Of a DNA stretch of 64,000 bases, positions 14,835-46,281 are shown one piece after another; positions within the stretch are counted from its first letter, which is position 1, and each line of letters opens with the position of its first letter. Position numbers and translations under genes: made by a program. The notes under the pieces are model-generated. The model ran no database searches. It was given only the letters and a program-made list of their open reading frames with translations, and was not told the origin of the DNA. This stretch comes from Flavobacteriales bacterium. Lineage in GTDB: Bacteria; Bacteroidota; Bacteroidia; Palsa-965. The stretch is from positions 108,807-172,806 of the forward strand of contig JBEIPA010000001.1 in the NCBI GenBank assembly GCA_040377305.1, given 5' to 3'.

Positions 14835-14989
14835 TTTCCTCTCGTTTCTTTTAACTGTGCGATTGCAGGTACGCAGTGAGTGATCACGTGCTGGCTATGC
14901 GCATTCGTTTCGTTTGGATAGCAGGTCTATGAAGTACCTCTACGTCATCCTATCATCCTATTATCCCATCATTGCACCATCAACAAGCA

Positions 14990-24006: not shown

Positions 24007-24133
24007 ATTCTCCAAAGATACGGAGAGATCGGAGTCGGGAGTTATTCCCAAGTGTAAACAGTCTTGACTACCTGGCGATCGAACACTTTTCCTGATACAT
24101 CCGGGTCTCTCATCTCCCGTCCCACCCTTATCT

Positions 24134-26234: not shown

Positions 26235-26264
26235 CTGTTGGGGGTTGGGGGTTGCTTGTCCATA

Positions 26265-27669: not shown

Positions 27670-29571
27670 CTAATTACCTGAAAAATTCATCGGCAGTTCA
27701 ATTATAAATTCGGCACCACCATTCTTCTCACTCTTAATACTGATGCATCCGCCCAAACTTTCGACCTGTGTCTTGACCATAAATAGCCCAATTCCCTTTC
27801 CTTCAATTGTCGGGTGAAATCTTTTATAAAGTCCAAAAACATCCTTGCCGTACTTGTTCAGGTCAATCCCTATTCCACTGTCCTTGAATGTAATTTTCAA
27901 TTTGCCCGATTCCATTTCACTTTTTATCCGAATAACGGGCGTATCATTTGGCTTTCTGAATTTAATACTATTCAATATAATATTATAGAAAATACTGTGC
28001 ATATAACTTTTGATACTTATCGTTCTATCAATAAGAGAAAAGTCTGTCTCGATTTGCACTTGTTCCTTTTGTATAAGATTCTGAATACTCGATCTGATTC
28101 CGTTAACAAGCTCCTCCAGATTAACCTCTGAGCGGCTTTCCGTGACGTCAAATCTTAAGTGCAGAATATCATTGATGTCCTTCACAACTTCGTCCAGTTG
28201 TTGAACTGCTGCGAAAAGGTATTCCTGAATTTCTATCCGATCCTGACCGGAAACATTCCCTTTCAAAACATTATTAATGCCCAGGATACTGGCAATCGGC
28301 GCTCGCAGGCTGTGTGAAACGATGTGCGCGAACTGTTCAAGGTTTTTGCTATGCTGAATTAAGTCGCTGGTAAGCTTAAAGCGCTCCTGTTCTGCCTGTT
28401 TGCGTAGCGTAACATCACGAATCATCATCGATGTTCTTTCCTGCCCATAGGCATCTGTAAACACTGCAGAAGTTACTTCACCCGGAAATTTACTGCCGTC
28501 TTTGCGGATAAAATTCAGTTCCCCCTTTGAACTACCCGTACGTCTTCTTTCTTCAATGAACATTTCCAGATGTGGATCAGAAGCGTCCACCAACCCCGCT
28601 CGCCCGGCCGCACAAATTTCCTGTTCCGACATTTGAAAAATGTAACACGCAGCAGGATTGGCTGAAATTATTTCCCCATTGGGAGAAGTAAGAAGGATGC
28701 CATCCATACTATTCTCGAAGAATGCACGATACTTTACTTCACTTTCACGGATTAGCTGTTCAGATACTTGCTGTTCAGTAATGTCAATATGCATGACAAC
28801 AATTCCGGAATCGCGGCTTTCATCTTCTCGTGTGACAATCACCTTAAACCATTTCGTACTATTCTGCAGGTAGTACTGATGAATGCCAGAGTAACTCTCT
28901 AATTCTCCCGATAGTATTTTCGACAACGCAGTTTCCAGTTTTTGCCCATCACCTGAAATGTTGCTGTAGCACAGTTTTATAATATCATGATAAGTACACC
29001 CAATGCCGTAGTTCAGTCGTTCAAATGAATTTGTATTGAAAAAATCCTTCCACAACTTATTTACATCACAAATGACTCCTCCTTTATCCAGCAAGACAAT
29101 ATGTGCCGGTAGATGTTGAAGTAGATCGGCATATTTTCTTTCGGAGTTCTTTAGTGTCACCGCCGCTTCCTTCCGCTCATTCTCAAGTTTGGCATATCTG
29201 AGAGCACTGAGAAAAGCCAAAGGCAAACGCTGGGGTCTGTCTTTCAGAATATAATCACTCGCTCCGTTCTTCATAACCTCTGCTGCAAATTCTTCTGTAA
29301 CAGTACCGGTTACAAGGATGAAAGGAATTTCCAACTCCGATTCCTTCAGAATATCTAATGCCTGCAGGGAATTAAATGAAGGGCAGAGATGATCACTGAT
29401 AATTATTTCCGGGGCAAATTCCTTCAAAGCATCAATATATGCAGTACGCGAATTCACAACTTTAATGTCCAGGTTAACCTTCGCTTCTTCCAATAGCTGG
29501 TCAATTAATTTAGCATCTGCCGGTAGTCCTTCCAGGTGCAGCACTCTTACAGGGTTGTTACTTGGTATCAT
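27670..29571 (-). CDS. hybrid sensor histidine kinase: N-terminal receiver domain + PAS domains + HisKA/HATPase
   Basis: The ATG at 29571 is preferred over the TTG at 29613. REC domain with VLHLEGLPADAKL...ISDHLCP. PAS repeats. H-box HSLRAPIASILG. C-terminal G1/G2 ATP-binding boxes. Confidence 0.8.
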   Translation of the reverse strand: MIPSNNPVRVLHLEGLPADAKLIDQLLEEAKVNLDIKVVNSRTAYIDALKEFAPEIIISDHLCPSFNSLQALDILKESELEIPFILVTGTVTEEFAAEVMKNGASDYILKDRPQRLPLAFLSALRYAKLENERKEAAVTLKNSERKYADLLQHLPAHIVLLDKGGVICDVNKLWKDFFNTNSFERLNYGIGCTYHDIIKLCYSNISGDGQKLETALSKILSGELESYSGIHQYYLQNSTKWFKVIVTREDESRDSGIVVMHIDITEQQVSEQLIRESEVKYRAFFENSMDGILLTSPNGEIISANPAACYIFQMSEQEICAAGRAGLVDASDPHLEMFIEERRRTGSSKGELNFIRKDGSKFPGEVTSAVFTDAYGQERTSMMIRDVTLRKQAEQERFKLTSDLIQHSKNLEQFAHIVSHSLRAPIASILGINNVLKGNVSGQDRIEIQEYLFAAVQQLDEVVKDINDILHLRFDVTESRSEVNLEELVNGIRSSIQNLIQKEQVQIETDFSLIDRTISIKSYMHSIFYNIILNSIKFRKPNDTPVIRIKSEMESGKLKITFKDSGIGIDLNKYGKDVFGLYKRFHPTIEGKGIGLFMVKTQVESLGGCISIKSEKNGGAEFIIELPMNFSGN

Positions 29572-29653
29572 GATTGGGGGTGATAATACTATTGTGTGGT
29601 ATGAGCACAGCAATCTGGGTTGATTGAGAAATTAGAAAGCGAATTTGTGATAA

Positions 29654-30079
29654 TCATAGTGAATCGGACTTGGATAGATTGGATTGAGACTGTATGATCT
29701 TCAATGTGTCAATTACCTTTTCAAGATCATGTGACTTATCGAAAAAGAAATCTGCCCCAAAACCAATACACGACTTACGGTAATGCTCGTTGGCAAAATT
29801 TGTAAATACGATCAATATGATTTCAGGATATTGCTTCCGAAGTTGGATAAGAAAACTAATGCCATTAGATTTTGGTGAATCACCCTCAAGATGAATGTCC
29901 AGAATAACAATCCTTGGCTTGGTTTCAGCTATCACAACATTGGCCGAGGAAACGTTTGGAGCGCACGCCACACATTCCACACCGACCAAAACACCCAAAA
30001 CGCTCTTCAACCGCTCAGTAATGAGTGCCGAATCATCAACAAGCACAATTTTTATTGGGCATATCCCTTCCTTCTCCAT
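29654..30079 (-). CDS. single-domain response regulator (CheY-like receiver)
   Basis: 141 aa. The motifs IKIVLVDD...ILDIHLEG...IILIVFT place the acidic pocket and a conserved Lys equivalent. Confidence 0.7.
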   Translation of the reverse strand: MEKEGICPIKIVLVDDSALITERLKSVLGVLVGVECVACAPNVSSANVVIAETKPRIVILDIHLEGDSPKSNGISFLIQLRKQYPEIILIVFTNFANEHYRKSCIGFGADFFFDKSHDLEKVIDTLKIIQSQSNLSKSDSL

Positions 30080-30174
30080 ATCCTCTGTTTCGGGTGCAAA
30101 GGACTGAATGAAGGCATCCGTTTCAGATAGGTTGGATCATGAAACTCTTGTAGTGGTTTGTACTACAAAACGGA

Positions 30175-30792
30175 TCAAACTAACTTGTTGTCCAGGGCAT
30201 ATCGCGTAATTTCGGCGTTATTGCCGAGGTTTAGTTTCTCCAGTATTCGGGCGCGGTAGGTGCTAATGGTGTTTACACTCAACACGATTTCGTCGGCAAT
30301 CTCCGACACCGTTTTACCTGAAGCGATAAGCTGGAGTACCTGCAACTCTCGATCTGACAGGGCGTCATAGTCCTGCTTTTCTCCATAAGTATCAGCTAAT
30401 TGTTCGGCTACTGAATCTGAAATATACTTACGTCCGGATAAAACTTTGTGTATAGCCGCAAGGAGTTCCTTTGTGGCGCTTTGTTTACTAAGAAAGCCAG
30501 AGGCTCCAGCCTTGAGTGTCCTGATCGCATATTGTTCTTCAGGGTGCATGCTCAACATGAGTATGGGCGCTTTTATCCCATTCGCCCTTATTTGTTTGAG
30601 CGCTTCCATTCCATTTATTCCTGGCATGGAAATATCAAGCAAAATGATATCCCAAATCTGCCTTCGGACTTCAACAAGCGCCTCATTGCCATTGGTGACT
30701 TCCGTAATGTCTGCCACAGAAAATTCTTCGCGCAATATTTGCACCAAACCTTTTCTGACTATTGCATGATCGTCTGCAATTAGAATTTTCAT
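30175..30792 (-). CDS. NarL/FixJ-family response regulator (REC + LuxR HTH)
   Basis: MKILIADDH...ILLDISMPG, then LSDRELQVLQLIASGKTVSEIADEIVLSVNTISTYRARILEKL. Overlaps the upstream kinase gene by 4 bp (ATGA). Confidence 0.85.
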   Translation of the reverse strand: MKILIADDHAIVRKGLVQILREEFSVADITEVTNGNEALVEVRRQIWDIILLDISMPGINGMEALKQIRANGIKAPILMLSMHPEEQYAIRTLKAGASGFLSKQSATKELLAAIHKVLSGRKYISDSVAEQLADTYGEKQDYDALSDRELQVLQLIASGKTVSEIADEIVLSVNTISTYRARILEKLNLGNNAEITRYALDNKLV

Positions 30793-33107
30793 AAGTGCTG
30801 ATTGTCTTTTCCTTGTAATGGTATTTCCAACGCAATCGTAACTCCACGTTGTTCTTCATTCTTGATAATTAAATTCCCGTGCAACATTAACGCGCGTTCT
30901 TTCATACCAACCAACCCCAGGGATTTTTTGTTCTTAGCTTCTTCAAGATTCAAACCAACACCGTTGTCCTTTACAATCAGTGATAAGACTCCGTTTTTTT
31001 CTTCAAGAGCAGTTTCAACAAGTGTTGCCTGACTATGCCTTGCGACGTTGGTAAGTGCTTCCTGATAAACCCTGAATATGTTAGTGACAATATTTATATC
31101 GAAGTCGCTGTCTTCTACTTCAGTCTTGAATCGCGATCTGATACCCGTTCGCTTTTCGAATTCCTGAGTTTGCCATTCGAGGGCGGCAATCAATCCCAGA
31201 TCGTCCAATATCCCGGGACGAAGTTCGGATGCAATTCGTCGTACACTTTGTATTGTGTCATCTATTAGCAAAATCATGTTTGATAGTCTTTCCTGAACCA
31301 TAACCTCACTTTGATTCTTGCTTTTTAGAATCCAGGATGTGTCCATCTTTAAGCCTGTCAATTGCTGACCCAATTCGTCATGGATTTCACGTGCAATGCG
31401 GGTTCTCTCCTCTTCTCGAACACGCTGCAAATGTCCAGTGAGTTCCTTCAACTGATCATACGATGCTTTCAACTCCTCTTCTGCCTTCAGTTTTTCGGTA
31501 ATATCATTTAGCATCACCAAAGAAGCACGTGTTCCATTATAATCTATCAAGTGACCCGTAATATCGAGAAACATCACTTCGCCACTCTTCTTCTTATGCC
31601 GCCATACTTTTTTGTGAACTCTACCGTACTGCTCCTCTGTCGTGATCACTTCCTCAAGTGCTGCGACATCCTCCAGGGGGCGGATGTCCTTAATCGTTAA
31701 GTTCAAAAATTCATCTCTTGTATAACCATACTTTAACAAAACTTCTTCATTGCAATCAATTATCTGCGTCGTTTTAAAATTCCAAATAAACATCGGTGAC
31801 GGATTATTCTCGAAGAGATTTTTATAATCCTTTTCACTTTGAATAATCTTGAGTTGCGCCTGTTTGCGTTCAGTTAGATCCTGACAAGTACCCAATGCTC
31901 GTACGGGATTTCCAAGCGGATCATAAAAAATCTTCCACCGCTCCTCTACATACTTTATAGCGCCAGACGGACTCACAGCCCGATGTTCGACAACATGCAA
32001 GAAATGTGATCCGATTGATTCCTTAAACGCATGATCAACCATCTCACGATCCAACGGGTGAACATAGTCGAGAAAATTAGGATGTGAATGCTTAAAGTCC
32101 ACGGGATCGATCTCAAAAATTTTGTAGGTCTCCAACGACCACGTCACTTCCATGGTTGAAAGGTTAGTTTCCCAACTACCAACCTTCGCTAAAGCTTGCG
32201 CTTCAATCAGTCTCGCTTCACTGACTTGCAACATCCTGGTTTTTTCTTCAACCAGTTTGTTCAGCTTCAAAGGCTGCCTTGCAAGATACCAGGCAAAGAT
32301 GCCGCCCACCAGTGAGAGAAGAAACCCAAGAATAGAAATGGCTAAGACTCCTAAAAATGCTTTTTTGTTTTTCGACATTACATGCAACTTCCACTCACCA
32401 TCTGGGATTTCAATTACAACTGACTGACCAGATTCAAACGATCTCGATTCAGGTAAAAAGTATTCTTCCTTTAATGTGGTTGGATTAACTTTTGACAATT
32501 GATACACGAATTCATTGCCCGGGAGCGTATCAATACCTGCGGCCTTCAAAAGTGTGGATATCTTAATAAGAACCGCAGCGAAGCCCTGAAACTCATTGTT
32601 AATGAAAATAGGGAGTCGACCAACGACCGCAACTCCTCCCTGCTTCAATTCGAATGGACCTGCAAAATAAAGCGACTTCATATCTATCGCCTTGTACGCC
32701 TCCTGGTTACGCAAGGAATCTTCAAGGATATTATAACCAATAGCTGCTTCATTTCCCTGTAACGGATAGACATTGGTTATTTCCCCTCCCTGGGTTAATT
32801 CAAGTGCATCGATAAATTTGTTCGATTGCAAAATGCGCTTCGCAATGGAGTCGAAATTTTTGGGAACTCCATATTCCTCCACAACAAACTTCAATGTTTG
32901 CACTGCAGCAAGATCGTAGCTCAATGCAGTTTGCAACCTATCCTTTACCGAATTTATCTCCCGAAGAATCTGATTGTGCTTTTCCTCTTTGACGATCAAG
33001 TACCGCTGATAGGATAGAAACTGAGTTAAGCCCGCGATTAATAAAAAAACGATCAGTCCCGTTAAGCGAGGAGTTTTGCTGCTTGAAGTAGTAGTGTTCG
33101 CTTTCAT
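30789..33107 (-). CDS. sensor histidine kinase (HisKA_3/NarX-type) with periplasmic sensing domain, TM segments and PAS domains
   Basis: 772 aa. H-box REIHDELGQQLTGLKMD, then an HATPase_c segment. Two TM helices flank a ~250-aa extracytoplasmic domain. Confidence 0.8.
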   Translation of the reverse strand: MKANTTTSSSKTPRLTGLIVFLLIAGLTQFLSYQRYLIVKEEKHNQILREINSVKDRLQTALSYDLAAVQTLKFVVEEYGVPKNFDSIAKRILQSNKFIDALELTQGGEITNVYPLQGNEAAIGYNILEDSLRNQEAYKAIDMKSLYFAGPFELKQGGVAVVGRLPIFINNEFQGFAAVLIKISTLLKAAGIDTLPGNEFVYQLSKVNPTTLKEEYFLPESRSFESGQSVVIEIPDGEWKLHVMSKNKKAFLGVLAISILGFLLSLVGGIFAWYLARQPLKLNKLVEEKTRMLQVSEARLIEAQALAKVGSWETNLSTMEVTWSLETYKIFEIDPVDFKHSHPNFLDYVHPLDREMVDHAFKESIGSHFLHVVEHRAVSPSGAIKYVEERWKIFYDPLGNPVRALGTCQDLTERKQAQLKIIQSEKDYKNLFENNPSPMFIWNFKTTQIIDCNEEVLLKYGYTRDEFLNLTIKDIRPLEDVAALEEVITTEEQYGRVHKKVWRHKKKSGEVMFLDITGHLIDYNGTRASLVMLNDITEKLKAEEELKASYDQLKELTGHLQRVREEERTRIAREIHDELGQQLTGLKMDTSWILKSKNQSEVMVQERLSNMILLIDDTIQSVRRIASELRPGILDDLGLIAALEWQTQEFEKRTGIRSRFKTEVEDSDFDINIVTNIFRVYQEALTNVARHSQATLVETALEEKNGVLSLIVKDNGVGLNLEEAKNKKSLGLVGMKERALMLHGNLIIKNEEQRGVTIALEIPLQGKDNQHL

Positions 33108-35613: not shown

Positions 35614-35720
35614 CCATGGTTATCACGGCTTTTGCTGGTTTATAGGGCATTTTGCGTTGGCGAAATTCCCGCCAACACAAAATGCCCTGCATCCACAAAG
35701 TAAGGACGTGATAACCGTGG
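35614..35720. repeat. nested inverted repeat (~107 bp structured element)
   Basis: Inner arms GGGCATTTTGCGTTGGCG (35645-35662) and CGCCAACACAAAATGCCC (35670-35687) pair at 17 of 18 positions. Outer arms CCATGGTTATCACGG (35614-35628) and CGTGATAACCGTGG (35707-35720). Confidence 0.5.
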
Positions 35721-35745
35721 GCTTCAGCCCGCGGTTCGACGAGAC

Positions 35746-37323
35746 CTACGGCAACTCCGCCATCAAAACGAACAGTTTCTCGAATTTATCTCTGATTTCG
35801 GAGAGTTCCCATTGCGTATTGTTCCCAATCATCGCAAATGCCAACCGCTTGCCGCTTTTGGTGTCTACATATCCTGAATAAGCCCGCACGCGAGACATGG
35901 TTCCGCTTTTTGCGCGAAGATTTCCTTCTGCAGCAGTGCTATCTGCAAGTTTTCTGATTGTACCCGATTCTCCCGCAACCGGAAGTGATCGATAGAACGA
36001 CTCGAAAATGATGGTGTCTTTTGCAAACGCACGTAACATGCTTACAAGTTGTTTAGTGGTGATGGAGTTGTTTCGCGACAAGCCACTTCCATCGACCATA
36101 TACAAACCTTGTATGTCGACGTTGTGTTTTCTCCAGAACTCATAAACACAAGCTGCGCCACCAAATGTGCTGCCGTATCCTTTTTGTTTGTGCGAGATTG
36201 CGCGCAGAATAGTTTCTGCATAAAAGTTTTGTGATATCTGATTCGTGTGATAAACGAGATCACGCAGTGTTGCCGACGAAGTTGAAGTGATTGTTTTTCT
36301 TCCACCTTCCGCTTCGAGTTTCAATCCGTTGAGACGAATCAAACGGATGGTCGTTGCGGAATCACCAACCTTTATTCCGCGCTCTGCGAGTTCGTTCTTC
36401 AACAGTTGCGCACACAACAAAGCCGGATCGGGAATAGAACCTCGCGCATCGAGGTGTCCGTTCACTTCTCCTTGCACAACGCGCTCGAATTGGTAAGGAC
36501 CACCGGTTACATACGCATAAGACTTCGCGACAGAATTGTTTACGCATTGATTGTACAATTTCATCCCCGGAATTTTCGGAGAGTAACTCATGCTCACATG
36601 TCCGCCGGAACCATTCAATGAAATACTGAATTGATTTTCGTGAATGGACAATCCGCTTGGACCTGCGCCGTAATCGCTTTGCACATCTTCCCAGCACCAG
36701 CCACCCGGAGTCATATCGCGTTCGAATGCCTCTGCATCTCCGATGATGCAACCCGAAATAGAGTCAACCCCCAAATTCTGAATGGCAGTTGCCCAGTTGT
36801 TCACCACTTTCTCTACGCTGCTGCCGTATGTTTCCGAACCAAGTGTCGGATCTCCGTTTCCGCGTATGTAAATATTTCCTTTGAGCGTGTTTCCGTCTTT
36901 CGATCCGTCGTGCTGCAATGAAGTAGTGAAACGATAACCCGGTCCAAGAATGGAAAGTGCGGTTCCGGTTGTCACAATTTTCATGACCGAGGCAGGAACT
37001 AATCCTGTTGTAGAATTCCATTCGTACATCGCCGTGTCTGCATCAACGGGTCCGAGGTAATAACTCCACGTTCCTCCACGAAGCTGTGCTGCGGCATTGA
37101 TTGAGTCTTCGATGAATGCGAGTAGTCTTCCCATTGCCGAAGTGTCTTTTTCAACGGACTCCTCTTCTTGCGTAGAGTCAGCGTTCTGAGTCACTTTATC
37201 CTTGAGCGGAACTTTTTCTCCTCCCGTCATAAAAACAAAAATTGTCGCGAGGATTGCCAGAGATAAAATGGCAATGGCACCTACTTGTTTAACGGTGAGG
37301 GTTTTGTTGAGGATATGCTTCAC
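35746..37323 (-). CDS. dacB: D-alanyl-D-alanine carboxypeptidase/endopeptidase (PBP4, peptidase S13)
   Basis: SVMK (SxxK), SQN and KSG motifs in S13 order. The N-terminal TM anchor requires the GTG at 37323; the alternative ATG is at 37401. Confidence 0.7.
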   Translation of the reverse strand: MKHILNKTLTVKQVGAIAILSLAILATIFVFMTGGEKVPLKDKVTQNADSTQEEESVEKDTSAMGRLLAFIEDSINAAAQLRGGTWSYYLGPVDADTAMYEWNSTTGLVPASVMKIVTTGTALSILGPGYRFTTSLQHDGSKDGNTLKGNIYIRGNGDPTLGSETYGSSVEKVVNNWATAIQNLGVDSISGCIIGDAEAFERDMTPGGWCWEDVQSDYGAGPSGLSIHENQFSISLNGSGGHVSMSYSPKIPGMKLYNQCVNNSVAKSYAYVTGGPYQFERVVQGEVNGHLDARGSIPDPALLCAQLLKNELAERGIKVGDSATTIRLIRLNGLKLEAEGGRKTITSTSSATLRDLVYHTNQISQNFYAETILRAISHKQKGYGSTFGGAACVYEFWRKHNVDIQGLYMVDGSGLSRNNSITTKQLVSMLRAFAKDTIIFESFYRSLPVAGESGTIRKLADSTAAEGNLRAKSGTMSRVRAYSGYVDTKSGKRLAFAMIGNNTQWELSEIRDKFEKLFVLMAELP

Positions 37324-37336
37324 GATGCAAAGATAG

Positions 37337-37468
37337 ACGGCAGGCGACAGACGACAGACGGGAGTACCGTAGATTTGCCAACGAAACCCGGTTAGAAACA
37401 TCGTTCTTTTACTCGGAAAACGTTGATTTTCACCCTTTACTCCCGTCTCCCGCCTGTCGTCTGGAGAC
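37337..37468. promoter_or_regulatory. imperfect inverted repeat pair carrying the 12-mer GGAGACGGGAGT in the divergent dacB / ECF-sigma intergenic region
   Basis: Left arm ...GACGACAGACGGGAGTACC. Right arm CTTTACTCCCGTCTCCCGCCTGTCGTCTGG. The same 12-mer occurs as an inverted pair at 46141-46281. Confidence 0.35.
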
Positions 37469-37525
37469 TTTTTCGTCCCTTTGTAAAATAAACACCCACC
37501 CCACCACGACCTTCCTACCGTAGTA

Positions 37526-38116
37526 ATGAAGGACATGGTACCCATAGCAACGACAATGGCCGCAGAGCAAAACAGGCTGCTTGAAGAAACAGTACAGCGC
37601 GAAAGACGCCGTTTGCTCGAGTTCATACGAAAAAGAATTCCGCAGGAGGAAGATCCGGAAGACGTGCTTCAGGATGTATTCACTGAATTAACGGAAGCTT
37701 TCAGAATGGAACGGGTCATCGACCGTGTGTCGGGCTGGGTATATCGTGTTGCCAGAAACAAAATCGCAGATCTTTTCAGGAGACGGAGAACAGAGTCGTT
37801 GGAAGCACGATACGAAAAAGAATTTGGCGATGGAGAAGAAGGCTTAGGCTTAAACGACTTGTTGCCTGACCCGTCGGCAGGTCCGGAAGCTGAATATGCA
37901 CGCCGTGTTATTATGAGTGAGTTGATGCTTGCACTTGATGAATTACCGGAAGAACAGCGTTGGGTTTTCTGGGAAAATGAAATCGAAGAACGTCCTTTCC
38001 GTGAGCTCGCGGAAGAGGCTGGAGTGTCGCTCAACACATTACTTTCAAGAAAACGATATGCTGTTTTGTTTCTACGAGAACGTTTGCGCGGTCTGTATGA
38101 AGAGCTCGGCAACTAA
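37526..38116 (+). CDS. ECF (sigma-70 group IV) RNA polymerase sigma factor
   Basis: Region 2 is DVLQDVFTELTEAF...WVYRVARNKIADLFRRR. Region 4 is RELAEEAGVSLNTLLSRKRYAVLFLRERL. Confidence 0.85.
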   Translation: MKDMVPIATTMAAEQNRLLEETVQRERRRLLEFIRKRIPQEEDPEDVLQDVFTELTEAFRMERVIDRVSGWVYRVARNKIADLFRRRRTESLEARYEKEFGDGEEGLGLNDLLPDPSAGPEAEYARRVIMSELMLALDELPEEQRWVFWENEIEERPFRELAEEAGVSLNTLLSRKRYAVLFLRERLRGLYEELGN

Positions 38117-38273
38117 TAGTAAAGAGTACAGAGAAAAGAGGCGAGAGAAAAGAATGGTGCGGATGCGAAAAAGAAAACAACAGCCTCTCGCCGCTTTACT
38201 CTTCACTCTTTACCCGACCGAAAACGAGGTCGACAAACTAAAAGAAGTATAAACGAACTAAAATATACAACAC

Positions 38274-38666
38274 ATGAAATGGTTTTTGAGATGTATAGCA
38301 GCCGTAGTGGGATTCGCTGCACTCGCATTCGCGCTCGCGTGGATAACGATGTTGCTCTGGAACTGGTTGGTTCCTGGACTGTTCGGCGGTCCTGAAATCA
38401 GGTACCTCGAAGCTGCAGGATTAATGATTCTCGGTAGACTGCTCGTGGGTGGATTCAAAAGTGGAGGTGGGCATTGCGGTCACGGTGGTAAATGGGGACA
38501 TGGCGGACACGGTTACTGGAAACGTCGCTGGGAAGACAAGATGGCGAACATGACTCCGGAAGAAAAGGAGAAGTTCAAAATGGGAATGAACAAGTGCGGT
38601 GGTTGGGGACGTTGGAATGATTGTGAAACTGAGACGCCGAAGGCGGAGACGAACAATACGCAATAG
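38274..38666 (+). CDS. small membrane protein with His/Gly/Cys-rich tail (putative metal-binding; possible ECF partner)
   Basis: Two N-terminal TM helices, then GGGHCGHGGKWGHGGHGYW...NKCGGWGRWNDCE. Confidence 0.5.
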   Translation: MKWFLRCIAAVVGFAALAFALAWITMLLWNWLVPGLFGGPEIRYLEAAGLMILGRLLVGGFKSGGGHCGHGGKWGHGGHGYWKRRWEDKMANMTPEEKEKFKMGMNKCGGWGRWNDCETETPKAETNNTQ

Positions 38667-38710
38667 TCAATACGCAATGCGCAGTCACTAATCTGAGACT
38701 GGAATTAAAA

Positions 38711-38750
38711 GAAAAAGGTTCGAGAGTCAAATCTTCGAACCTTTTTCTTT
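38711..38750. terminator. bidirectional rho-independent terminator
   Basis: AAAAAGGTTCGAG-n9-TTCGAACCTTTTT flanked by A-rich and T-rich runs, between convergent genes. Confidence 0.7.
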
Positions 38751-38761
38751 TTGCGCTTTGG

Positions 38762-40270
38762 CTATTGCGTATTGCTCATTGGATCGCGCTTGCGCGAAAG
38801 TGCAAACATCACAAAAGCCAACGTTATCAACGATACAAAAAACGTAAGCATGCTGCTGTTTGCTTCCGATGTTTGTTCAGGTTCAAAATCCCCGAACGGA
38901 ATGATGCTTCCCTGTTTCGAGCTCTGGTGTTTTTTGTCGAGATACTGATCGAACTCTTTCGGATAATCGTAATGCGTGGTGATATCGCGACCAGTGAGCC
39001 ACTGATACGTGTATAATTCATTCCAACGACGCTTACCCAGTTCCACCAGATACTCTTGTCCTTTTTCGCAGGTGTAATCCGTACTGTACGGCGGGTTCGT
39101 GAGAATATATCGTCCCTGGAATCGCACCTTATTTGCAGTTTCCTGAAATAACAAATCCTGTGGAAAATGTTCGCGATCATACGTGAGGTGCAGACGTGTG
39201 AAGTACACGAAGCCTTCGTACGTTTTAGCTTGCGTGTGATAGTCCGTGCTTTTTAGTTCAAGCCAATCTACACCCGCATCTTTCAGATCAGTTACAACAG
39301 GTGGATCACCAACGCACGGATCACAGAATTGATTTTGCGTTGGAGAAACATCCCAACCGTATTCGAGGAAAACGGTATTCTTTCCCTCGCGACTCCATGC
39401 TTTGTTGTAGAGATCACGATAAAATTCACCGAACTCGTTGCGAACAAACAGCGGCACTTTAAAGTCGGTTGGAATAAGCGAAGTGCGATAGTTTGTTGTT
39501 TCGATGCGTCCAACTTTGGAGTACATGTACACAACAAGATCCTGTACGCCGTTTGCGTTTGCCATTCCCAGGCGAATCGGCAACATGAATTTTGGTGAGG
39601 TGTATGTAATCTGTAGTGGCTTCAATGGCACAGCTCCAGCCGCGGTGTAATTTTCGAGATTCACTTTCGCCACGAAAAACTTCATGTTCGTTTTGATGTA
39701 CGGATCGAGAACTTCTTTTGCACCGACCGGCATTTTATAACCGTTGTCAATGAGCCATTCTTCTAATCCACCAGATTCAAGTGCAGAAAGAATAAGAATA
39801 TCATATTCACCAACGGTGTATTTCGCTTCCACGGTTACGCCGTAGGATTTTTCCTCCATCGGTGCCGCATTTCCATCGCTGTAACCATAAGCTGCAGATC
39901 TGGTTTTCTTAGCCCCGTAGTGTGGTTTGTATTTCGGAGGAGTGTAACATGGATTCTGATCGTAGTACTCCACCAGACGTGGTGAAGAATACAAATCAAG
40001 TTTATCGAACAACGCGCGCTCTGCAACTTTGATATCGCCTTCCTGCAATACCACCGGAACCGGAACGACCATTGCAAAATCCTTCACGTCGCCTTCAAAA
40101 TCACTCGACATGGTTACGGTTTGCTTATCACCATTCTTCGCAATGATAACCTGCGATGTTTTGTTGAATAGTTTGATGTCTGCTTTTGCAACATAAAATC
40201 CGCAGAAGCTGTAGCCGATGTTGCTTGTGAACACTATAGCTGCGAGAGTGAGGATGAGCGTCTTTTTCAT
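38762..40270 (-). CDS. tandem paralogue 1 of 4: secreted protein with C-terminal TM anchor, unknown function (tentatively DUF2330-like)
   Basis: 502 aa. Signal peptide, SFCGFYVAKAD, VVPVPVVL, KFMLPIRLGMANANGVQDL and QFCDPCVGDPP conserved with the other three copies. The C-terminal segment FFVSLITLAFVMFALSRKR is a TM helix with a basic tail. Confidence 0.85.
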   Translation of the reverse strand: MKKTLILTLAAIVFTSNIGYSFCGFYVAKADIKLFNKTSQVIIAKNGDKQTVTMSSDFEGDVKDFAMVVPVPVVLQEGDIKVAERALFDKLDLYSSPRLVEYYDQNPCYTPPKYKPHYGAKKTRSAAYGYSDGNAAPMEEKSYGVTVEAKYTVGEYDILILSALESGGLEEWLIDNGYKMPVGAKEVLDPYIKTNMKFFVAKVNLENYTAAGAVPLKPLQITYTSPKFMLPIRLGMANANGVQDLVVYMYSKVGRIETTNYRTSLIPTDFKVPLFVRNEFGEFYRDLYNKAWSREGKNTVFLEYGWDVSPTQNQFCDPCVGDPPVVTDLKDAGVDWLELKSTDYHTQAKTYEGFVYFTRLHLTYDREHFPQDLLFQETANKVRFQGRYILTNPPYSTDYTCEKGQEYLVELGKRRWNELYTYQWLTGRDITTHYDYPKEFDQYLDKKHQSSKQGSIIPFGDFEPEQTSEANSSMLTFFVSLITLAFVMFALSRKRDPMSNTQ

Positions 40271-40372
40271 TCGGCGGTCGGGTTTATGATATGATGATAG
40301 AATGATCGGATGATAGGATAGGTCGAGTCAAATATTCACTACACTCTATCATTCAATCATCCCACAATCTTA
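40271..40372 (-). promoter_or_regulatory. conserved inter-paralogue element: upstream arm GATGATTGAATGATAG plus about four tandem ATCATNNN octamers ending ~10 nt before the start codon
   Basis: Gene-sense reading: ...GGGATGATTGAATGATAGAG...CCTATCCTATCATCCGATCATTCTATCATCATATCATAAACC-ATG. Confidence 0.5.
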
Positions 40373-41875
40373 TCACTGATTCGGTACTGTTTCTTTTAGC
40401 TTGCGCTTACGCGAAAGAGCAAACATCACTCCTGCAAATGCAAGTACTGAAGTGAAAAATGTAATCATATTGCTTTCCGATTTCGTGGCATGCTCGGGTG
40501 TGAAGTTCTCCAAATCAACCAAGGCTCCCTGTTTCTTCGGAGCGCCGCCGGTTAGAAACTGATCGTATTCTTTCGGATAATCTGCATGCGATGTGATATC
40601 GCGACCCGTGAGCCACTGATAGGTGTACAATTCATTCCAGCGACGTTTCCCGAGATCCTTGATGTAAGTCTGTCCTTCTGCACACGACAAATCTCCGCTG
40701 GCCGGATGCGTGATGATGTAGCGGCCCTGAAACTTTTCTTTGTTCGCCGTTTCCTGAAACAACAAATCCTGCGGAAAGTGCGCACGATCATATTTCAAAT
40801 GCATGCGCGTGAAGAAAACATTACCTGCATACGTTCTTGCTTGTGTGTGGTAGTCCTGAGTTGCCAGTGTAAGCCAATCTACTCCTGCTTCTTTCAGATC
40901 AGTTACCATTGGAGGATCGCCCACACACGGATCACAAAACTGGGTTTGATTCGGAGAAACTTCCCACGCGTATTCGAGGAACACGGTGTTCTTTCCTTCG
41001 CGTGTCCAGGCTTTGTCGTAGAGATCCCGATAAAATTCGCCGAATTCATTCTGCACAAACAGTGGTACTTTGAAATCGGTTGGAATGAGTGAAGTGCGAT
41101 AATTGGTTGTTTCGATTCTTCCGATTTTCGAATACATGTAAATCACGAGATCCTGTACACCATTTGCGTTTGCCATCCCCAGTCGGATTGGCAACATAAA
41201 TTTTGGCGATGTGTAAGTAATTTGAAGCGGATCGAGATCAACCGAACCTTTATTGGCGAACTTCTCGAGATTCACTTTACACACAAAAAACTTCATGTTC
41301 GTTTTGATGTACGGATCCAAAACTTCTTTTGCACCAACAGGCATTTTGTAACCGTTGGCGTTGAGCCACGTTTCAAGTCCTCCCGATTCTTTCGCCGACA
41401 AAATCAAAATGTCATACGTTCCGATCTGGTACTGCGCTTCAACCGTAACTCCGAGCGTATCTGCAGCATAACCAAAGTTCATCATCGGTGCTGCATCGAA
41501 AGAAACTTCACTCAGAAGTACTCCTTCATTGTAATACTCAGGTTCCACGTAACAGGGAGTCTGATCGTAATAAGAAACCAATCGTGGAGATGAATAATCT
41601 TCCAGTTTTCCGAAGATGCTTTGATTCACCGTTCGGATATCTTTCTCCTCCAGCACAACCGGAACTGGAACGACCATGGCAAAGTCTTTCACCTCTCCTT
41701 CAAAATCACTCGACATCGTAACGGTTTGCTTGTCGCCATTCTTTGCTATAATTACCTGTGAAGTCTTGTTGAACAATTTCACATCAGCTTTCGCCACGTA
41801 AAATCCGCAGAAACTGTAGCCTATGTTGCTGGTGAACACTATGGCAGCTAGAGTAAGTATGAGTACTTTCTTCAT
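40373..41875 (-). CDS. tandem paralogue 2 of 4 (same family)
   Basis: 500 aa. Near-identical scaffold to 41975-43477 except for the cassette segments. Confidence 0.85.
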   Translation of the reverse strand: MKKVLILTLAAIVFTSNIGYSFCGFYVAKADVKLFNKTSQVIIAKNGDKQTVTMSSDFEGEVKDFAMVVPVPVVLEEKDIRTVNQSIFGKLEDYSSPRLVSYYDQTPCYVEPEYYNEGVLLSEVSFDAAPMMNFGYAADTLGVTVEAQYQIGTYDILILSAKESGGLETWLNANGYKMPVGAKEVLDPYIKTNMKFFVCKVNLEKFANKGSVDLDPLQITYTSPKFMLPIRLGMANANGVQDLVIYMYSKIGRIETTNYRTSLIPTDFKVPLFVQNEFGEFYRDLYDKAWTREGKNTVFLEYAWEVSPNQTQFCDPCVGDPPMVTDLKEAGVDWLTLATQDYHTQARTYAGNVFFTRMHLKYDRAHFPQDLLFQETANKEKFQGRYIITHPASGDLSCAEGQTYIKDLGKRRWNELYTYQWLTGRDITSHADYPKEYDQFLTGGAPKKQGALVDLENFTPEHATKSESNMITFFTSVLAFAGVMFALSRKRKLKETVPNQ

Positions 41876-41974
41876 GACGTAAGTTTATGATAGGATGATA
41901 GAATGATCGGATGATTGGATAGGTCGGGTGATCGTACTAACTCCATCCTATCATTCAATCATCTGATAATCCCA
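41876..41974 (-). promoter_or_regulatory. conserved inter-paralogue element (copy 2)
   Basis: ...CCTATCCAATCATCCGATCATTCTATCATCCTATCATAAACTTACGTC-ATG, with the upstream inverted partner GATGATTGAATGATAGG. Confidence 0.5.
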
Positions 41975-43477
41975 TCATGAATTCGGCACTGTTTGTTCCT
42001 TTGATTTCCGCTTACGCGATAAAGCAAACATTACTCCGGCAAACGCAAGAACAGAAGTAAAGAAACTAATCATGTTGCTTTCCGATTTCGTTGCATGTTC
42101 CGGTATGAATTCCTCAGGTGTCAAGAATGAACCTTGTTTCTTCGCCGCACCACCCGTTAAATACCGATCGAACTCCTTCGGATAATCGTAATGCGCAGTA
42201 ATATCGCGACCAGTTAGCCACTGATAGGTATAGAGTTCATTCCAACGGCGCTTTCCAAGATCCTTGATATACGTTTGCCCTTCTGCACAAGAAAGATCTC
42301 CGCTTGCCGGATAGGTGATAATGTAACGACCCTGAAACTTTTCCTTGTTCGCTGTTTCCTGGAATAACAAATCCTGCGGGAAGTGTGCGCGATCATACGT
42401 GAGGTGCAAACGCGTGAAGAACACATTACCTGCGTATGTTCTCGCTTGCGTGTGGTAATCCTGAGTCGCCAGTGTAAGCCAATCTACTCCGGCTTCTTTC
42501 AGATCAGTTACCATCGGTGGATCACCAACGCACGGATCGCAGAACTGTGTTTGATTCGGAGAAACTTCCCATGCGTATTCGAGAAACACGGTGTTCTTTC
42601 CTTCCCGTCCCCAAGCTTTATTGTAGAGATCGCGATAGAACACACCGAACTCATCTTTCGCAAACAGAGGCACTTTGAAATCGGTTGGGATTAACGAGGT
42701 GCGATAATTAGTCGTCTCGATGCGACCGATCTTTGAATACATGTAGATGATCAAATCCTGAACCCCATTGGCATTCGCCATTCCAAGTCGGATCGGCAAC
42801 ATGAATTTCGGCGACGTGTAAGTAATTTGAAGTGGATCGAGATCAACAGAACCTTTGTTCGCAAATTTTTCAAGATTCACTTTGCAAACAAAGAACTTCA
42901 TATTGGTCTTGATGTACGGATCGAGAACTTCCTTAGCACCAACCGGCATTTTGTATCCGTTGTCGTTGAGCCACGTTTCGAGTCCGCCCGATTCCTTTGC
43001 TGACAAGATGAGAATATCGTACGTGCCGATTTGGTATTGAGCTTCAATAGTTACACCTAAACTTTGAGTTGTAGTCACATTCGCGACACTCATTCTCATC
43101 ATTTCCGGAGCTGCAGCAACCATATCGTAATCGTAATCGTCCCGCTCAACGTAACAAGGTGTTTGATCGTAATACGATACCAATCGTGGAGCGGAATAAT
43201 CTTCCAGTTTTCCGAAGATGCTTTGATTCACTGTGCGAATATCTTTCTCTTCAAGAACTACAGGCACGGGAACAACCATCGCGAAATCTTTTACTTCGCC
43301 TTCGAAGTCGCTCGACATGGTTACTGTTTGCTTATCGCCATTCTTCGCGATAATCACCTGAGACGTTTTGTTGAAGAGCTTTACATCCGATTTCGCAACG
43401 TAGAAACCACAGAAGCTGTAGCCCATATTGCTGGTGAATAGGATAGCGGCGAGGGTGACGATAAGTATTTTTTTCAT
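41975..43477 (-). CDS. tandem paralogue 3 of 4 (same family)
   Basis: 500 aa. Confidence 0.85.
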   Translation of the reverse strand: MKKILIVTLAAILFTSNMGYSFCGFYVAKSDVKLFNKTSQVIIAKNGDKQTVTMSSDFEGEVKDFAMVVPVPVVLEEKDIRTVNQSIFGKLEDYSAPRLVSYYDQTPCYVERDDYDYDMVAAAPEMMRMSVANVTTTQSLGVTIEAQYQIGTYDILILSAKESGGLETWLNDNGYKMPVGAKEVLDPYIKTNMKFFVCKVNLEKFANKGSVDLDPLQITYTSPKFMLPIRLGMANANGVQDLIIYMYSKIGRIETTNYRTSLIPTDFKVPLFAKDEFGVFYRDLYNKAWGREGKNTVFLEYAWEVSPNQTQFCDPCVGDPPMVTDLKEAGVDWLTLATQDYHTQARTYAGNVFFTRLHLTYDRAHFPQDLLFQETANKEKFQGRYIITYPASGDLSCAEGQTYIKDLGKRRWNELYTYQWLTGRDITAHYDYPKEFDRYLTGGAAKKQGSFLTPEEFIPEHATKSESNMISFFTSVLAFAGVMFALSRKRKSKEQTVPNS

Positions 43478-43579
43478 GACACTGTAAGTTGATGATGGAA
43501 TGATAGAATTATTGGATGATAGGATGGAACGAAGAACAACATAAACTACATCCTATCATTTAATCATCTGAGCATCCTA
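43478..43579 (-). promoter_or_regulatory. conserved inter-paralogue element (copy 3)
   Basis: Same architecture (…ATCCTATCATTTAATCATC… / …GATGATGGAATGATAGAATTATTGGATGATAGGATGG…). Confidence 0.5.
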
Positions 43580-45088
43580 TCATGTTTGTGAGGTAGTTTG
43601 AGACTTTGCCTTCCGTTTTCGCGATAACGCAAACATCACTCCTGCAAATGCAAGTACAGAAGTGAAGAACGTGATCATATTGCCTTCAGACTTTGTTGCG
43701 TGTTCCGGCACGAAAGACTCGATTGACATGAACGAACCTTGTTTGGTTTTTCCACCGGTTGATTTGATGTGCTGATCATATTCCTTCGGATAGTCGTAGT
43801 GCGCAGTAATGTCGCGACCGGTAAGCCACTGATACGTGTAAAGCTCGTTCCAACGGCGCTTACCAAGCTCCTTCACATAAGTCTGTCCCTTTTCGCACGA
43901 GAAATCTCCGCTTGCCGGATGAGTAATGATGTAACGACCCTGAAATTTTTCTTTGTTCGCTGTTTCCTGGAACAACAAATCCTGCGGGAAGTGCGCGCGA
44001 TCATACGTAAGATGCATACGTGTAAAGAACACATTGCCTGCGTACGTTCTCGCTTGTGTATGATAATCCTGGCTCGCAAGTTCAAGCCAATCAACGCCAG
44101 CTTCTTTCAGGTCAGTTACCATTGGAGGATCGCCAACGCACGGATCACAAAACTGCGTTTGATTCGGAGAAACTTCCCACGCATACTCGAGGAATACGGT
44201 ATTCTTTCCTTCGCGGCCCCAAGCTTTGTTGTACAGGTCGCGGTAGAATTCGCCAAACTCATTCTGAACAAACAACGGAACTTTAAAATCGGTTGGAATC
44301 AAAGACGTGCGATAGTTTGTTGTTTCGATACGACCGATCTTCGAATACATGTAAATGATCAAATCCTGAACTCCATTCGCATTTGCCATTCCGAGTCGAA
44401 TCGGCAACATGAACTTCGGTGATGCATACGTAATCTGAAGTGGATCGAGATCAACGGAACCTTTGTTTGCGAATTTTTCCAGATTCACTTTACACACGAA
44501 GAATTTCATGTTCGTTTTGATGTACGGATCGAGCACTTCTTTAGCGCCCACCGGCATTTTGTATCCGTTGTCGTTGAGCCACATCTCTAATCCGCCCGAT
44601 TCTTTCGCTGATAAAATCAGGATGTCATAAGTTCCAATTTGGTATTGCGCTTCTACAGTTACCTGGTAGTCGTCAGCCAACTCCTTGCTTACGCTTTTCA
44701 TTTCCATTCTGTCGATAGACGCTCCCGCAGCCATAGGATAGTTGTAATACTCCGGTTCTACGTAACAGGGGTTCTCATCGTAATAAGAAACGAGTCGCGG
44801 GGCTGAGTAGTCATCAAGTTTGGCGAAGATGCTCGCTTGCACAGTTCGTATGTCTTTCTCTTCGAGAACTACCGGAACAGGAACGACCATTGCAAAATCC
44901 TTCACGTCGCCCTCGAAGTCGCTCGACATGGTAACGGTTTGCTTCTCGCCATTCTTCGCGATAATAACCTGCGATGATTTATTGAAAAGTTTCACGTCTG
45001 CTTTTGCAACATAAAATCCGCAGAAGCTATAGCCCATGTTGCTGGTGAACACAATGGCTGCGAGAGTGAGTATCAGTACTTTTTTCAT
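43580..45088 (-). CDS. tandem paralogue 4 of 4 (same family)
   Basis: 502 aa. Confidence 0.85.
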   Translation of the reverse strand: MKKVLILTLAAIVFTSNMGYSFCGFYVAKADVKLFNKSSQVIIAKNGEKQTVTMSSDFEGDVKDFAMVVPVPVVLEEKDIRTVQASIFAKLDDYSAPRLVSYYDENPCYVEPEYYNYPMAAGASIDRMEMKSVSKELADDYQVTVEAQYQIGTYDILILSAKESGGLEMWLNDNGYKMPVGAKEVLDPYIKTNMKFFVCKVNLEKFANKGSVDLDPLQITYASPKFMLPIRLGMANANGVQDLIIYMYSKIGRIETTNYRTSLIPTDFKVPLFVQNEFGEFYRDLYNKAWGREGKNTVFLEYAWEVSPNQTQFCDPCVGDPPMVTDLKEAGVDWLELASQDYHTQARTYAGNVFFTRMHLTYDRAHFPQDLLFQETANKEKFQGRYIITHPASGDFSCEKGQTYVKELGKRRWNELYTYQWLTGRDITAHYDYPKEYDQHIKSTGGKTKQGSFMSIESFVPEHATKSEGNMITFFTSVLAFAGVMFALSRKRKAKSQTTSQT

Positions 45089-45209
45089 GACCCTTTAGTT
45101 TTATGATCGAATGATTCAATGATTTGATGATCGGATTGGATACGGTACAACAGAAACTCCATCCTATCAATCTATAATCATATCATGCTAATTATTCGTG
45201 GTATTGAGT
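45089..45209 (-). promoter_or_regulatory. conserved element upstream of first paralogue (copy 4)
   Basis: Gene-sense: ...ATCCAATCCGATCATCAAATCATTGAATCATTCGATCATAAAACTAAAGGGTC-ATG. Confidence 0.5.
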
Positions 45210-46073
45210 TTATTTAGACCAGGAGAATTTATCTCCTTTGAAAATTTTATCGAGCACAGGAACGAGTGGTGACAAGAAGAACAATGCCCACACTGGAGGC
45301 GCAGAATACACCCACCATTTCGTTGCCATGTAGTATGCCAGAATGCCAACTCCAACAGCCCATATCAATCGTGCTTTTTGTGAAGCAGGAGTCTGAACCG
45401 GATCAGTGATCATGAAGAAGGTGAAGAGCAGCAACGAACCGTTCGTTAATTGATGCGTAAAGAAATCCATCGGCCAACCGAGGTAAAGAATGTTGCGCGC
45501 AAACATTAACCCGAGGAACGTAAGCAAGAATGCAAACGCTGTATCGAGACGTTTAACGCGCAACAGCACAACCAAACCTGTAAGGCCTACAACAAACAAC
45601 AACAAACCGTCACTTCCCCACTGTCCAGGAGAAATCCATGAGTCACCTGTAAGCAGGACTGTTACACAGATTCCAAAGTTTGTTGGATTGAAAATATGTT
45701 TGCCATTATATTTTAAAAAGAACTTGCTTCCGATGGAGAGCACTGCACACAACACGAATGTCCACACACTGTTTGCCTGCATCATCAAACAGATACTCAT
45801 TGCACTTACGAGTGCACTCTTGAGTCCTGTCCAATCTTTCGTCTTGAACTGTATCCAAAGTGCCTGCACTGCGAGACAAGAAAGAATCACGATGTTCACC
45901 CGCATGATTGGGATCGTCCAATCCAACACGAAAATCCCGTACAACAGGAAAGACAGTTGGAACAGAATCTGATAATGGCGGGCATCACTTCGAAACCATT
46001 CGAGAACGTTAGTTACGGGCTTAATCGCCGTTTTTAGGGCGTTTTGGGCGACGGGTAGAGATTGAGTTTCCAT
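45210..46073 (-). CDS. polytopic membrane protein, possibly NqrB/RnfD-like
   Basis: The ATG at 46073 (METQSLPVAQ) is preferred over the longer track ORF. About eight TM helices. The FFMITDPVQTP motif is reminiscent of the Rnf/Nqr D/B subunit signature, but the protein is shorter than canonical members. Confidence 0.35.
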   Translation of the reverse strand: METQSLPVAQNALKTAIKPVTNVLEWFRSDARHYQILFQLSFLLYGIFVLDWTIPIMRVNIVILSCLAVQALWIQFKTKDWTGLKSALVSAMSICLMMQANSVWTFVLCAVLSIGSKFFLKYNGKHIFNPTNFGICVTVLLTGDSWISPGQWGSDGLLLFVVGLTGLVVLLRVKRLDTAFAFLLTFLGLMFARNILYLGWPMDFFTHQLTNGSLLLFTFFMITDPVQTPASQKARLIWAVGVGILAYYMATKWWVYSAPPVWALFFLSPLVPVLDKIFKGDKFSWSK

Positions 46074-46140
46074 TGGATTAGTATTAATTCCGCAAGTAGG
46101 ATGCGGGGCTTTAGCTGATTCCATAAAAGGTACAAAAAAA

Positions 46141-46281
46141 GATGGGAGTCGGGAGATGGGAGACGGGAGTGAAAAGCTGCAGGGCCAACGCGATTGCATT
46201 GGAATCATTGATTTCCAAATTCATGGCGAATAATTAGATGCCGGATATGCGTCTTCCTACTCCCGTCTCCGATCTCCTAAC
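46141..46281. repeat. second inverted pair of the GGAGACGGGAGT 12-mer, in the 5' region of the membrane-protein gene
   Basis: Left arm GATGGGAGTCGGGAGATGGGAGACGGGAGTG. Right arm CTACTCCCGTCTCCGATCTCC. About 85 bp apart. Confidence 0.4.

Follow-up and report, generated by a model that had tools for sequence, protein, structure and literature searches.

Inverted pairs of heptamer arrays in the intergenic regions of a Flavobacteriales bacterium: a probable dispersed hairpin-forming repeat

Why should one and the same 12-mer stand in inverted pairs in front of two unrelated genes? This question arises from a stretch of 64,000 nucleotides of a Flavobacteriales bacterium (GenBank assembly GCA_040377305.1, contig JBEIPA010000001.1, positions 108,807 to 172,806 of the forward strand), which is called the window here and is numbered from its first letter. 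The 12-mer, GGAGACGGGAGT, is found at locus A, in the divergent spacer between a dacB-like gene and the gene for an extracytoplasmic function (ECF) sigma factor, and at locus B, upstream of a gene for an RnfD-like membrane protein. An original prediction, made from the letters of the window, had left three explanations side by side: a site for a transcription factor or the ECF sigma factor, a long-range stem in the leader RNA, and a miniature inverted-repeat element. As described below, the 12-mer is the tip of a longer arm, the arm is an array of heptamers, and the inverted arms of GGGAGNN units are probably a hairpin-forming repeat that is dispersed at the DNA level, of the class of the short tandemly repeated repetitive sequences (STRRs) and the G-rich heptamers, rather than the binding site of a regulator.

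Heptamer arrays at loci A and B

What exactly is repeated at the two loci? The exact 12-mer occurs at three sites in the window, 37439-37450 on the minus strand, 46159-46170 on the plus strand and 46259-46270 on the minus strand. The predicted inverted pairs are real and non-random, but the exact copies number three, not four: the left copy of locus A, CAGACGGGAGT at 37355-37365, agrees with the 12-mer at 10/12 positions. The 10-mer AGACGGGAGT has exactly four occurrences in the 64 kb, which together make up the two inverted pairs. When up to one mismatch is allowed, the 12-mer has five matches against 0.21 expected, a number reached by none of 100 shuffles. The inner distances between the copies are 73 nt (A) and 88 nt (B) instead of the 65-85 bp first given. 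The copies are indeed embedded, as had been noticed, in longer imperfect arms: those of A are 26 nt long, 85% complementary and 71 nt apart (37341-37366 and 37438-37463), and those of B are 36 nt long, 78% complementary and 66 nt apart (46146-46181 and 46248-46283). Inverted-repeat scores of 16 and 17.5 stand against shuffle maxima of 10.5 and 9.5, respectively. The whole elements measure ~135-145 nt with arms of 26-36 nt, inside the range of MITEs, the transposable elements of the miniature inverted-repeat type (<~300 bp with terminal inverted repeats).

The feature that had been missed is that these arms are heptamer arrays, and that the neighboring intergenic regions are filled by other unit families with the same architecture. 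Tandem Repeats Finder reports a period of 7 for both loci, all of whose arms consist of tandem heptamers, and the 12-mer is the inner tip of an arm of ~30 bases, namely its innermost 1.7 units. On the plus strand the left, G-strand arm of locus A (37332-37366) reads GATAGAC GGCAGGC GACAGAC GACAGAC GGGAGTA, and the right, C-strand arm (37438-37468), which holds the exact 12-mer on the minus strand, reads TACTCCC GTCTCCC GCCTGTC GTCTGGA GAC. The GACGACAG repeats remarked on earlier at this locus are present and are simply two units (GACAGAC twice) of the left array. The interior of 71 nt (37367-37437) shares homology with those of the orthologous elements in two related contigs, L031 and L036. 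At locus B the left arm (46144-46171, plus strand) reads GGGAGTC GGGAGAT GGGAGAC GGGAGTG and the right arm (46258-46284, plus strand) TACTCCC GTCTCCG ATCTCCT AACTCA, and the 86-nt interior between them (46172-46257) has small hairpins of its own and is unlike the interior of the orthologous element in L037. The interiors of A and B are unrelated to each other.

The gene context had been read correctly. Locus A lies between the dacB-like GTG start (37323), which is 8 nt from the outer end of the left arm, and the ATG of the divergent sigma gene (37526); locus B is found upstream of the RnfD-like gene (start 46073), and its right arm takes in, as its last three bases (46282-46284), the TGA stop codon of the upstream gene, which encodes a Kazal protein with a type IX secretion system (T9SS) tail (46282-46749, minus strand). 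The other arms of A and B are 55-70 nt from start codons. The placement of the arms agrees with a strand rule by which the G-strand is in sense when it follows a stop codon and antisense when it precedes a start codon. Next to locus B there is an A7 tract on the plus strand (46134-46140), which is U7 on the sense (minus) strand, directly 3' of the stem.

Dispersal, neighboring unit families and turnover

Is the arm confined to this piece of one genome? Bases 46258-46283, in the right arm of locus B, are identical at 26/26 positions to an arm in an unrelated contig without protein homology to the window, L011, of a metagenome-assembled genome (MAG) labelled in GTDB 'uncultured Chryseobacterium sp. 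SRP136066_co1_95'. Two collections were then scanned with seeds containing the GGGAG motif. The single-arm scan of Joint Genome Institute (JGI) metagenomes yielded 35 loci, of which sample Ga0255338 (GC 0.45-0.48) contributed 12; in this sample the interiors range from loops of 5-17 nt, making plain long hairpins, to ~200 nt with intrinsic terminators or with doublets resembling REPINs (hairpin-forming doublets of the repetitive extragenic palindrome, REP). Across 33 pairs the order of the variant units is kept as ...GGAGTT / GGAGAT / (C/G)GGAGAC / GGGAGT, often after (A)AGTAG. The modal number of units is four (23 low-GC sequences: 22 loci and the window), and the polarity never varies, 16 pairs being G-first and 0 C-first. 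Interiors are shared between L041 and L055 and between L003 and L011, and since these interiors are homologous, such composite forms have been copied as whole units. An all-against-all BLAST of the fetched low-GC loci, which sought orthologous filled and empty sites, gave no matches, nor did a tblastx of the scan loci L001-L030 against the window.

The pair scan of GTDB genomes found the geometry AGACGGGAGT...ACTCCCGTCT, in which one or two GC-rich hairpins stand between (GGGAGAC)n or (GGGGGAC)n arrays, in several Gemmatimonadaceae and in MAGs of Planctomycetota, Pirellulales, Acidobacteriota and deltaproteobacteria, with multiple loci per genome. In the Gemmatimonadota MAGs L001, L009, L012, L018-L021, L028 and L030 two separate GC-rich hairpins are regularly found inside the inverted (GGGAGAC/GGGGGAC)n arms; the second, GCGAGCGGC...GCCGCTCGC, recurs among different MAGs, and the arrangement resembles the mosaics known as bacterial interspersed mosaic elements (BIMEs).

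Every intergenic region of at least 50 nt in the window was scored for inverted repeats against shuffles. Eight consecutive intergenic regions (37.3-46.3 kb) hold long inverted repeats whose arms are periodic at 7 or 8 nt; the scores are 12.5-19 against shuffle maxima of 9-10.5 in seven of them, and the pair in the fourth DUF2330 spacer (45119-45186) scores 8.0, inside the shuffle range. A scan for self-similarity finds five arrays at lag 7 and six at lag 8, against ~0.5 in shuffles in each case. The units are GGGAGNN, GTAAAGA, CAATACG and ATGATNGN, those other than GGGAGNN making at least six inverted pairs besides A and B, and the pairs mostly adjoin or overlap stop or start codons. Because the eight spacers carry differing units, one sequence-specific binding protein cannot explain the phenomenon.

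What became of these spacers in related genomes? Searches with the dacB-like and RnfD-like proteins gave eleven syntenic metagenomic contigs, with 74-94% amino acid identity for dacB and 80-89% for RnfD. At the spacer between the sigma and dacB genes an inverted pair of heptamer arrays is present in 8/9 lineages, and the unit family changes in both arms together: it is GGGAGNN in the window, L031/L032, L036 and L037, TCAGACC in L033 and L039, ATAGGCG in L034 and GGTAGTT in L038, and L035 has no array at this place. The 12-mer is not kept there across the nine syntenic relatives. At the spacer of locus B, L037 has a GGGAG pair with another interior and L078 a remnant G-arm, and no recognizable element is seen in L033 or L035. 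At the spacer after the sigma gene (locus D, 38117-38215 in the window, where the unit is GTAAAGA/GNNNAGA and the pair begins one base after the sigma stop codon) the relatives differ: L031 has a GTTTCNG pair, L037 and L038 have GTTCACN pairs, and L036, L033 and L035 lack an element. Compared across the syntenic contigs, elements have been both gained and lost.

At the next spacer, locus E (38651-38782), (CAATACG)n arms flank a bidirectional intrinsic terminator (38708-38752) and overlap the stop codons of both convergent genes, 38274-38666 (plus) and 38762-40270 (minus). The window, L036, L037 and L078 have orthologous central terminators (GGTTCGA..TCGAACC), and the arms around them are CA(A/G)TNCG in the window, L036 and L037 and GTAAGTA in L078. 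Both convergent genes of the window end in NTQ*, their last codons and stop being supplied by the arrays.

How fast do these sequences change? At four-fold degenerate sites the window shares just 0.56-0.62 identity with L031 and L036, even at 92-94% amino acid identity; in the same comparison the arms of locus A are 0.64-0.68 identical, the interior 0.68-0.71 and the promoter side 0.77-0.79. Judged from these alignments, the arms and the interior of locus A drift close to the neutral rate.

After the dacB stop codon most relatives have array pairs of varying unit families, which begin at the stop codon. The window has, at that place, a REP-like palindrome, CCGCGGGCTGAAGCCCACGG (35715-35734, minus strand), and then a plain hairpin of 17 bp (35644-35688). 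The 20-mer of 35715-35734 is found, identical, inside a GGGAG-armed element of L055, and L041 and L045 have copies related to it. In some relatives the arrays are greatly expanded: a convergent spacer of ~400 nt in L078 (14208-14604) consists of (GTAAGTA)n arms with a higher-order repeat of ~60 nt around the conserved terminator, an arm in L038 (9044-9283) has ~20 units of GTTCACC/GTTCTTC, and L061 (5846-6578) has at least 16 GGGAGNN units on one strand.

In the window, array-armed repeats occupy all eight spacers of a cluster made up of the sigma gene, a 130-aa gene, four DUF2330 genes, the RnfD-like gene and the Kazal-T9SS gene (37324-46281), and the ~25 other intergenic regions have almost none, only ordinary short terminator hairpins. 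The four tandem DUF2330 paralogues (38762-45088) are of ~500 aa each, and relatives have three. Their spacers are near-duplicates carrying (ATGATNGN)n inverted pairs: the 8-nt array pair at 40286-40375 occupies its whole spacer, similar pairs lie at 41887-41963 and 43492-43583, and a weaker one lies at 45103-45186. These spacer elements are dispensable, because the corresponding paralogues in L035 are almost contiguous (4-59 nt). Away from the cluster there is a weaker third copy of the GGGAG family, locus C (24023-24127; GAGAGAT CGGAGTC GGGAGTT ... GTCTCTC ATCTCCC GTCCCAC), in a divergent spacer between an acyltransferase gene and a 496-aa gene; it is missing in L033 and L038, and L034 has a CAGTNCG pair at that place. 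Two arrays without a clear inverted partner were also seen, (TCATCCTA)x4 in a convergent spacer at 14945-14980, which is the reverse complement of the ATGATAGG unit family, and (GTTGGGG)x2.6 at 26237-26254 beside a MarR-like gene. At 27670-33107, between a gene of the beta-lactamase family and 211-aa genes, the window has a two-component block (a hybrid PAS histidine kinase, two response regulators, one of them of the LuxR type, and a CHASE/PAS kinase) that its syntenic relatives lack at that position.

Origin of the arms and rival explanations

From the architecture, family structure, distribution and comparative turnover, all of which are observed, we infer how the repeat is copied and what it does at the RNA level. 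The basic unit is an arm of ~28-35 nt with the consensus ~(A)AGTAGATCGGAGTTGGGAGATCGGAGACGGGAGT, that is, four degenerate GGGAGNN units, and two convergent arms, with the G-rich arm always 5' on either strand, make up a non-coding hairpin repeat that would arise and be maintained at the DNA level. Replication slippage would reshuffle the units within arrays, and arms would be copied from locus to locus and across the intergenic hairpin, whether by gene conversion, by an insertion resembling transposition or by strand switching templated by the hairpin. Copying across the central hairpin would account for the change of family in both arms around a retained terminator. The elements would persist only where the sequence is unconstrained, and would therefore expand up to stop and start codons. 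Any effect on neighboring genes would be exerted by the stem of 25-30 bp formed on transcription, and such effects are probably secondary and dependent on the locus. Locus B probably acts as a terminator or 3'-end stabilizer of the upstream gene, as its predicted stem begins at the stop codon of that gene and U7 comes after it on the sense strand. Locus A is placed between the sigma promoter and the dacB-like start, and therefore the dacB leader must include at least the C-rich arm; the element would be an obligatory part of this leader, or at least of the promoter-proximal DNA.

The arrays also disturb gene calling at this place. The GTG start of the dacB-like gene (37323) is common to all orthologues, and the frame (35746-37626, minus strand) stays open for 101 codons upstream of it, through locus A into the sigma gene; gene callers give the extended dacB 626 aa in the window and 546-569 aa in several relatives. 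The extension is an annotation artefact, because heptamer arrays are free of stop codons in some frames. Annotators may take it as a warning that such arrays can prolong genes in stop-free frames or supply the stop codons of their neighbors.

Could the hairpins instead be RNA structures under selection, whose arm pairing terminates transcription, protects the 3' end of the upstream mRNA or makes an RNase III site between cistrons, the sequence being free to drift so long as pairing is kept? We consider this unlikely, but it is the rival with the most in its favor. As in the leader RNA stem of the original prediction, the RNAs of A and B are predicted to fold with their arms paired, and very stably (-59.5 and -61.1 kcal/mol; z = -5.0 and -5.8). 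Arms start at stop codons or run across them, the stem of B with its 'loop' of 86 nt runs into U7 on the sense strand, T-runs follow 8/34 arm exits against a background of 7% (four of the eight being orthologues of locus A), both arms always belong to one unit family even after full turnover, and an element of the hairpin type follows the dacB stop codon in 8/9 lineages. Selection at the RNA level, however, leaves no mark in the tests made. In 16 unidirectionally transcribed elements the sense strand folds better in 7/16 (p = 0.78, with low power) and G-U pairs number 55 against 60, with no strand asymmetry; within the GGGAG family, the two arms of an element match each other no better than they match the arms of other elements (0.588 and 0.586, permutation p = 0.40, 15 elements, again with low power), and the same co-variation test on the high-GC set gives a weak p = 0.014 from a set that mixes orthologous loci. 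Moreover, the divergent spacers of loci A and C have nothing to terminate, some close relatives have no elements, a canonical terminator is already present inside the arms of locus E, and a terminator and promoter scan called neither A nor B, with an overall total no higher than in shuffles. A search of Rfam gave no matches at the gathering threshold, and at E <= 1 it gave only noise resembling miRNA precursors (21-26 bits against cut-offs of 53-180). The leader stem of the original prediction is, in short, plausible as a fold, and selection on it finds no support. Closest of the three earlier readings is the miniature inverted-repeat element, in so far as a dispersed inverted-repeat family exists. 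In its classical cut-and-paste form, in which the arms of ~30 bp would be terminal inverted repeats served by the transposase of a full-length insertion sequence elsewhere in the genome, a MITE would explain the dispersal, the conserved terminal arms with their strict polarity, the presence and absence among relatives, and the composite subfamilies copied as whole units. Such a MITE is nevertheless improbable: no consistent target-site duplication was found at the outer flanks of 17 pairs, where TA flanks about half of the ends; most interiors are unrelated, those of A and B included, and range from 5 to ~200 nt; arm families are replaced around a retained orthologous terminator; the many arm families in 9 kb would each need a transposase of their own; and neither a transposase in the window region examined nor an arm pair at long range in the fetched loci was seen. 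The boundaries of locus D, compared with empty sites in relatives, show no duplication either, and clean filled and empty sites were not found, the relatives being too diverged.

Very improbable is an array acting on DNA as a regulator, that is, either a set of operators to which the ECF sigma factor, its partner or some other transcription factor would bind, or a switch on the flanking promoters made by a G-quadruplex or a cruciform. Locus A does lie in a divergent promoter region beside an ECF sigma gene, the left arm of locus B is the sole canonical G3x4 quadruplex motif in the window, and related repeats of Xanthomonas form G-quadruplexes in vitro (PMC4692102). But the 12-mer and its unit family are not conserved at orthologous promoters at which promoter-like blocks outside the arm are kept. 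These blocks, TTTGTAAAATAA and then CGACCTTCCT (37480-37516, plus strand), look like a promoter of the ECF type and lie upstream of the sigma gene; TTTGTAAAATAA and CGCGACC(T/A)TCCT, ~18 nt apart, are invariant in all nine relatives amid diverged surroundings, and they probably form an autoregulated promoter of the sigma gene. The motif GTAAAA-N14-20-CGACC has one site in the window, upstream of the sigma gene itself, which disposes of the suggestion that both dacB and the membrane-protein gene belong to an ECF regulon. Arms with four G3 tracts number 1/26 in the low-GC clade and 21/36 in high-GC MAGs, and the neighboring units GTAAAGA, CAATACG and ATGATAGG cannot form a G-quadruplex; the quadruplex as a unifying property of the clade is ruled out by the first of these counts. 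Many copies, furthermore, are at gene 3' ends. For the window the regulatory reading of the 12-mer falls away, and the real candidate for an ECF promoter is the conserved block at 37480-37516. A link to phages was likewise tried and rejected, as two scans of viral contigs gave chance hairpins only, without arrays.

The dispersed DNA-level repeat is, in our judgment, the likelier account, and several observations weigh against it. Interiors wholly different between most copies are atypical of a mobile unit, and no transposase that could serve as copying machinery was found, either in the part of the window that was examined or among the fetched loci. At locus E the terminator is retained and both arms differ in family between L078 and the window, a change that simple insertion of a whole element cannot explain. 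Array pairs are kept at the same spacers across lineages saturated at synonymous sites, which could equally reflect selection for a hairpin, and the elements are clustered in one gene cluster of 9 kb. Both collection scans having been seeded with the GGGAG motif, the family statistics are conditioned on it and silent on other unit families. A more adventurous form of the idea, which we consider improbable, is that the arms are the footprint of an unrecognized copying process, hairpin-templated or enzyme-driven, that installs and renews inverted heptad arms around pre-existing intergenic hairpins up to stop and start codons in Bacteroidota, Gemmatimonadota, Planctomycetota, Xanthomonas and cyanobacteria. 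The strongest hint of such a process is again locus E, where the terminator is kept between arms of CAATACG in the window and of GTAAGTA in L078.

Relation to known repeats

To which of the known repeats do these elements belong? Mazel et al. reportedly described in 1990 (J Bacteriol) the cyanobacterial STRRs as several families of intergenic tandem heptamers, dispersed, shared by related species and mainly in direct arrays. They resemble the present elements in making intergenic regions variable in sequence yet structured, and differ in the prevalence of direct arrays.

The closest likeness is with the G-rich heptamers of Xanthomonas and Nostoc. The GGGAATC repeats of Xanthomonas lie between genes, have four as their commonest number of units and include 70-75 inverted pairs of convergent arrays per genome (Rehm et al., 2015; PMC4692102); they lie at most 50 bp from the ends of open reading frames, may overlap stop codons and show no functional theme among the neighboring genes (PMC4692102). 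In Nostoc the unit is GGGGA[C/T]T (PMC4692102). Common to these repeats and to ours are tandem GGGANNN units, an intergenic bias, a mode of four, convergent inverted pairs, a distance of at most ~50 bp from the ends of reading frames, a G-strand that is sense after a stop codon, which it may overlap, and antisense before a start codon, flanking genes without a common function, and arrays that vary between close relatives. The unit here is GGGAG(A/T)N instead of the GGGAATC of Xanthomonas, the variant units of the arm come in a fixed order, as in a terminal repeat, several unit families that are not G-rich have the same architecture, and the elements occur in an uncultured Bacteroidota lineage. 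With the Xanthomonas repeats they do not share quadruplex formation, since so few arms of the clade keep four G3 tracts.

Heptamers of another kind, TAACTGA, have been described in Beggiatoaceae, cyanobacteria and five Bacteroidetes (MacGregor, 2015; PMC4679880), in 169 direct sets and 1 inverted set, and these arrays are oriented to the downstream start codon (PMC4679880). Like the present elements they are intergenic, adjoin starts or overlap stops, occur in Bacteroidetes beside other heptamer repeats and are missing from the same spacer in close relatives, whereas they are nearly always direct and ours are inverted pairs. The REP, BIME and REPIN sequences also form extragenic inverted doublets tens of bases apart, at gene 3' ends and between cistrons, and make stable hairpins in mRNA, and the REP-like palindrome CCGCGGGCTGAAGCCCACGG co-occurs with our elements and is nested inside some; a REP, however, is a short imperfect palindrome, while the arms here are non-palindromic tandem arrays. 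Bacterial MITEs such as Correia and Nezha are likewise short, non-coding and dispersed, with terminal inverted repeats, presence or absence between relatives and RNA that can fold, and here, unlike in MITEs, no target-site duplication or cognate transposase was found and most copies have no conserved interior.

The syntenic series provides comparative material on what heptanucleotide arrays (STRRs) are and how they spread: the same spacers carry different arm families, with an invariant promoter just outside one element and an invariant terminator inside another. With it, the known range of the inverted-pair form grows from Xanthomonas to include uncultured Bacteroidota and high-GC phyla of soil and water. 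This kind of repeat is already known in Xanthomonas and cyanobacteria, and what is new is the evidence that arms are replaced around conserved intergenic hairpins, together with the distribution of the architecture across phyla.

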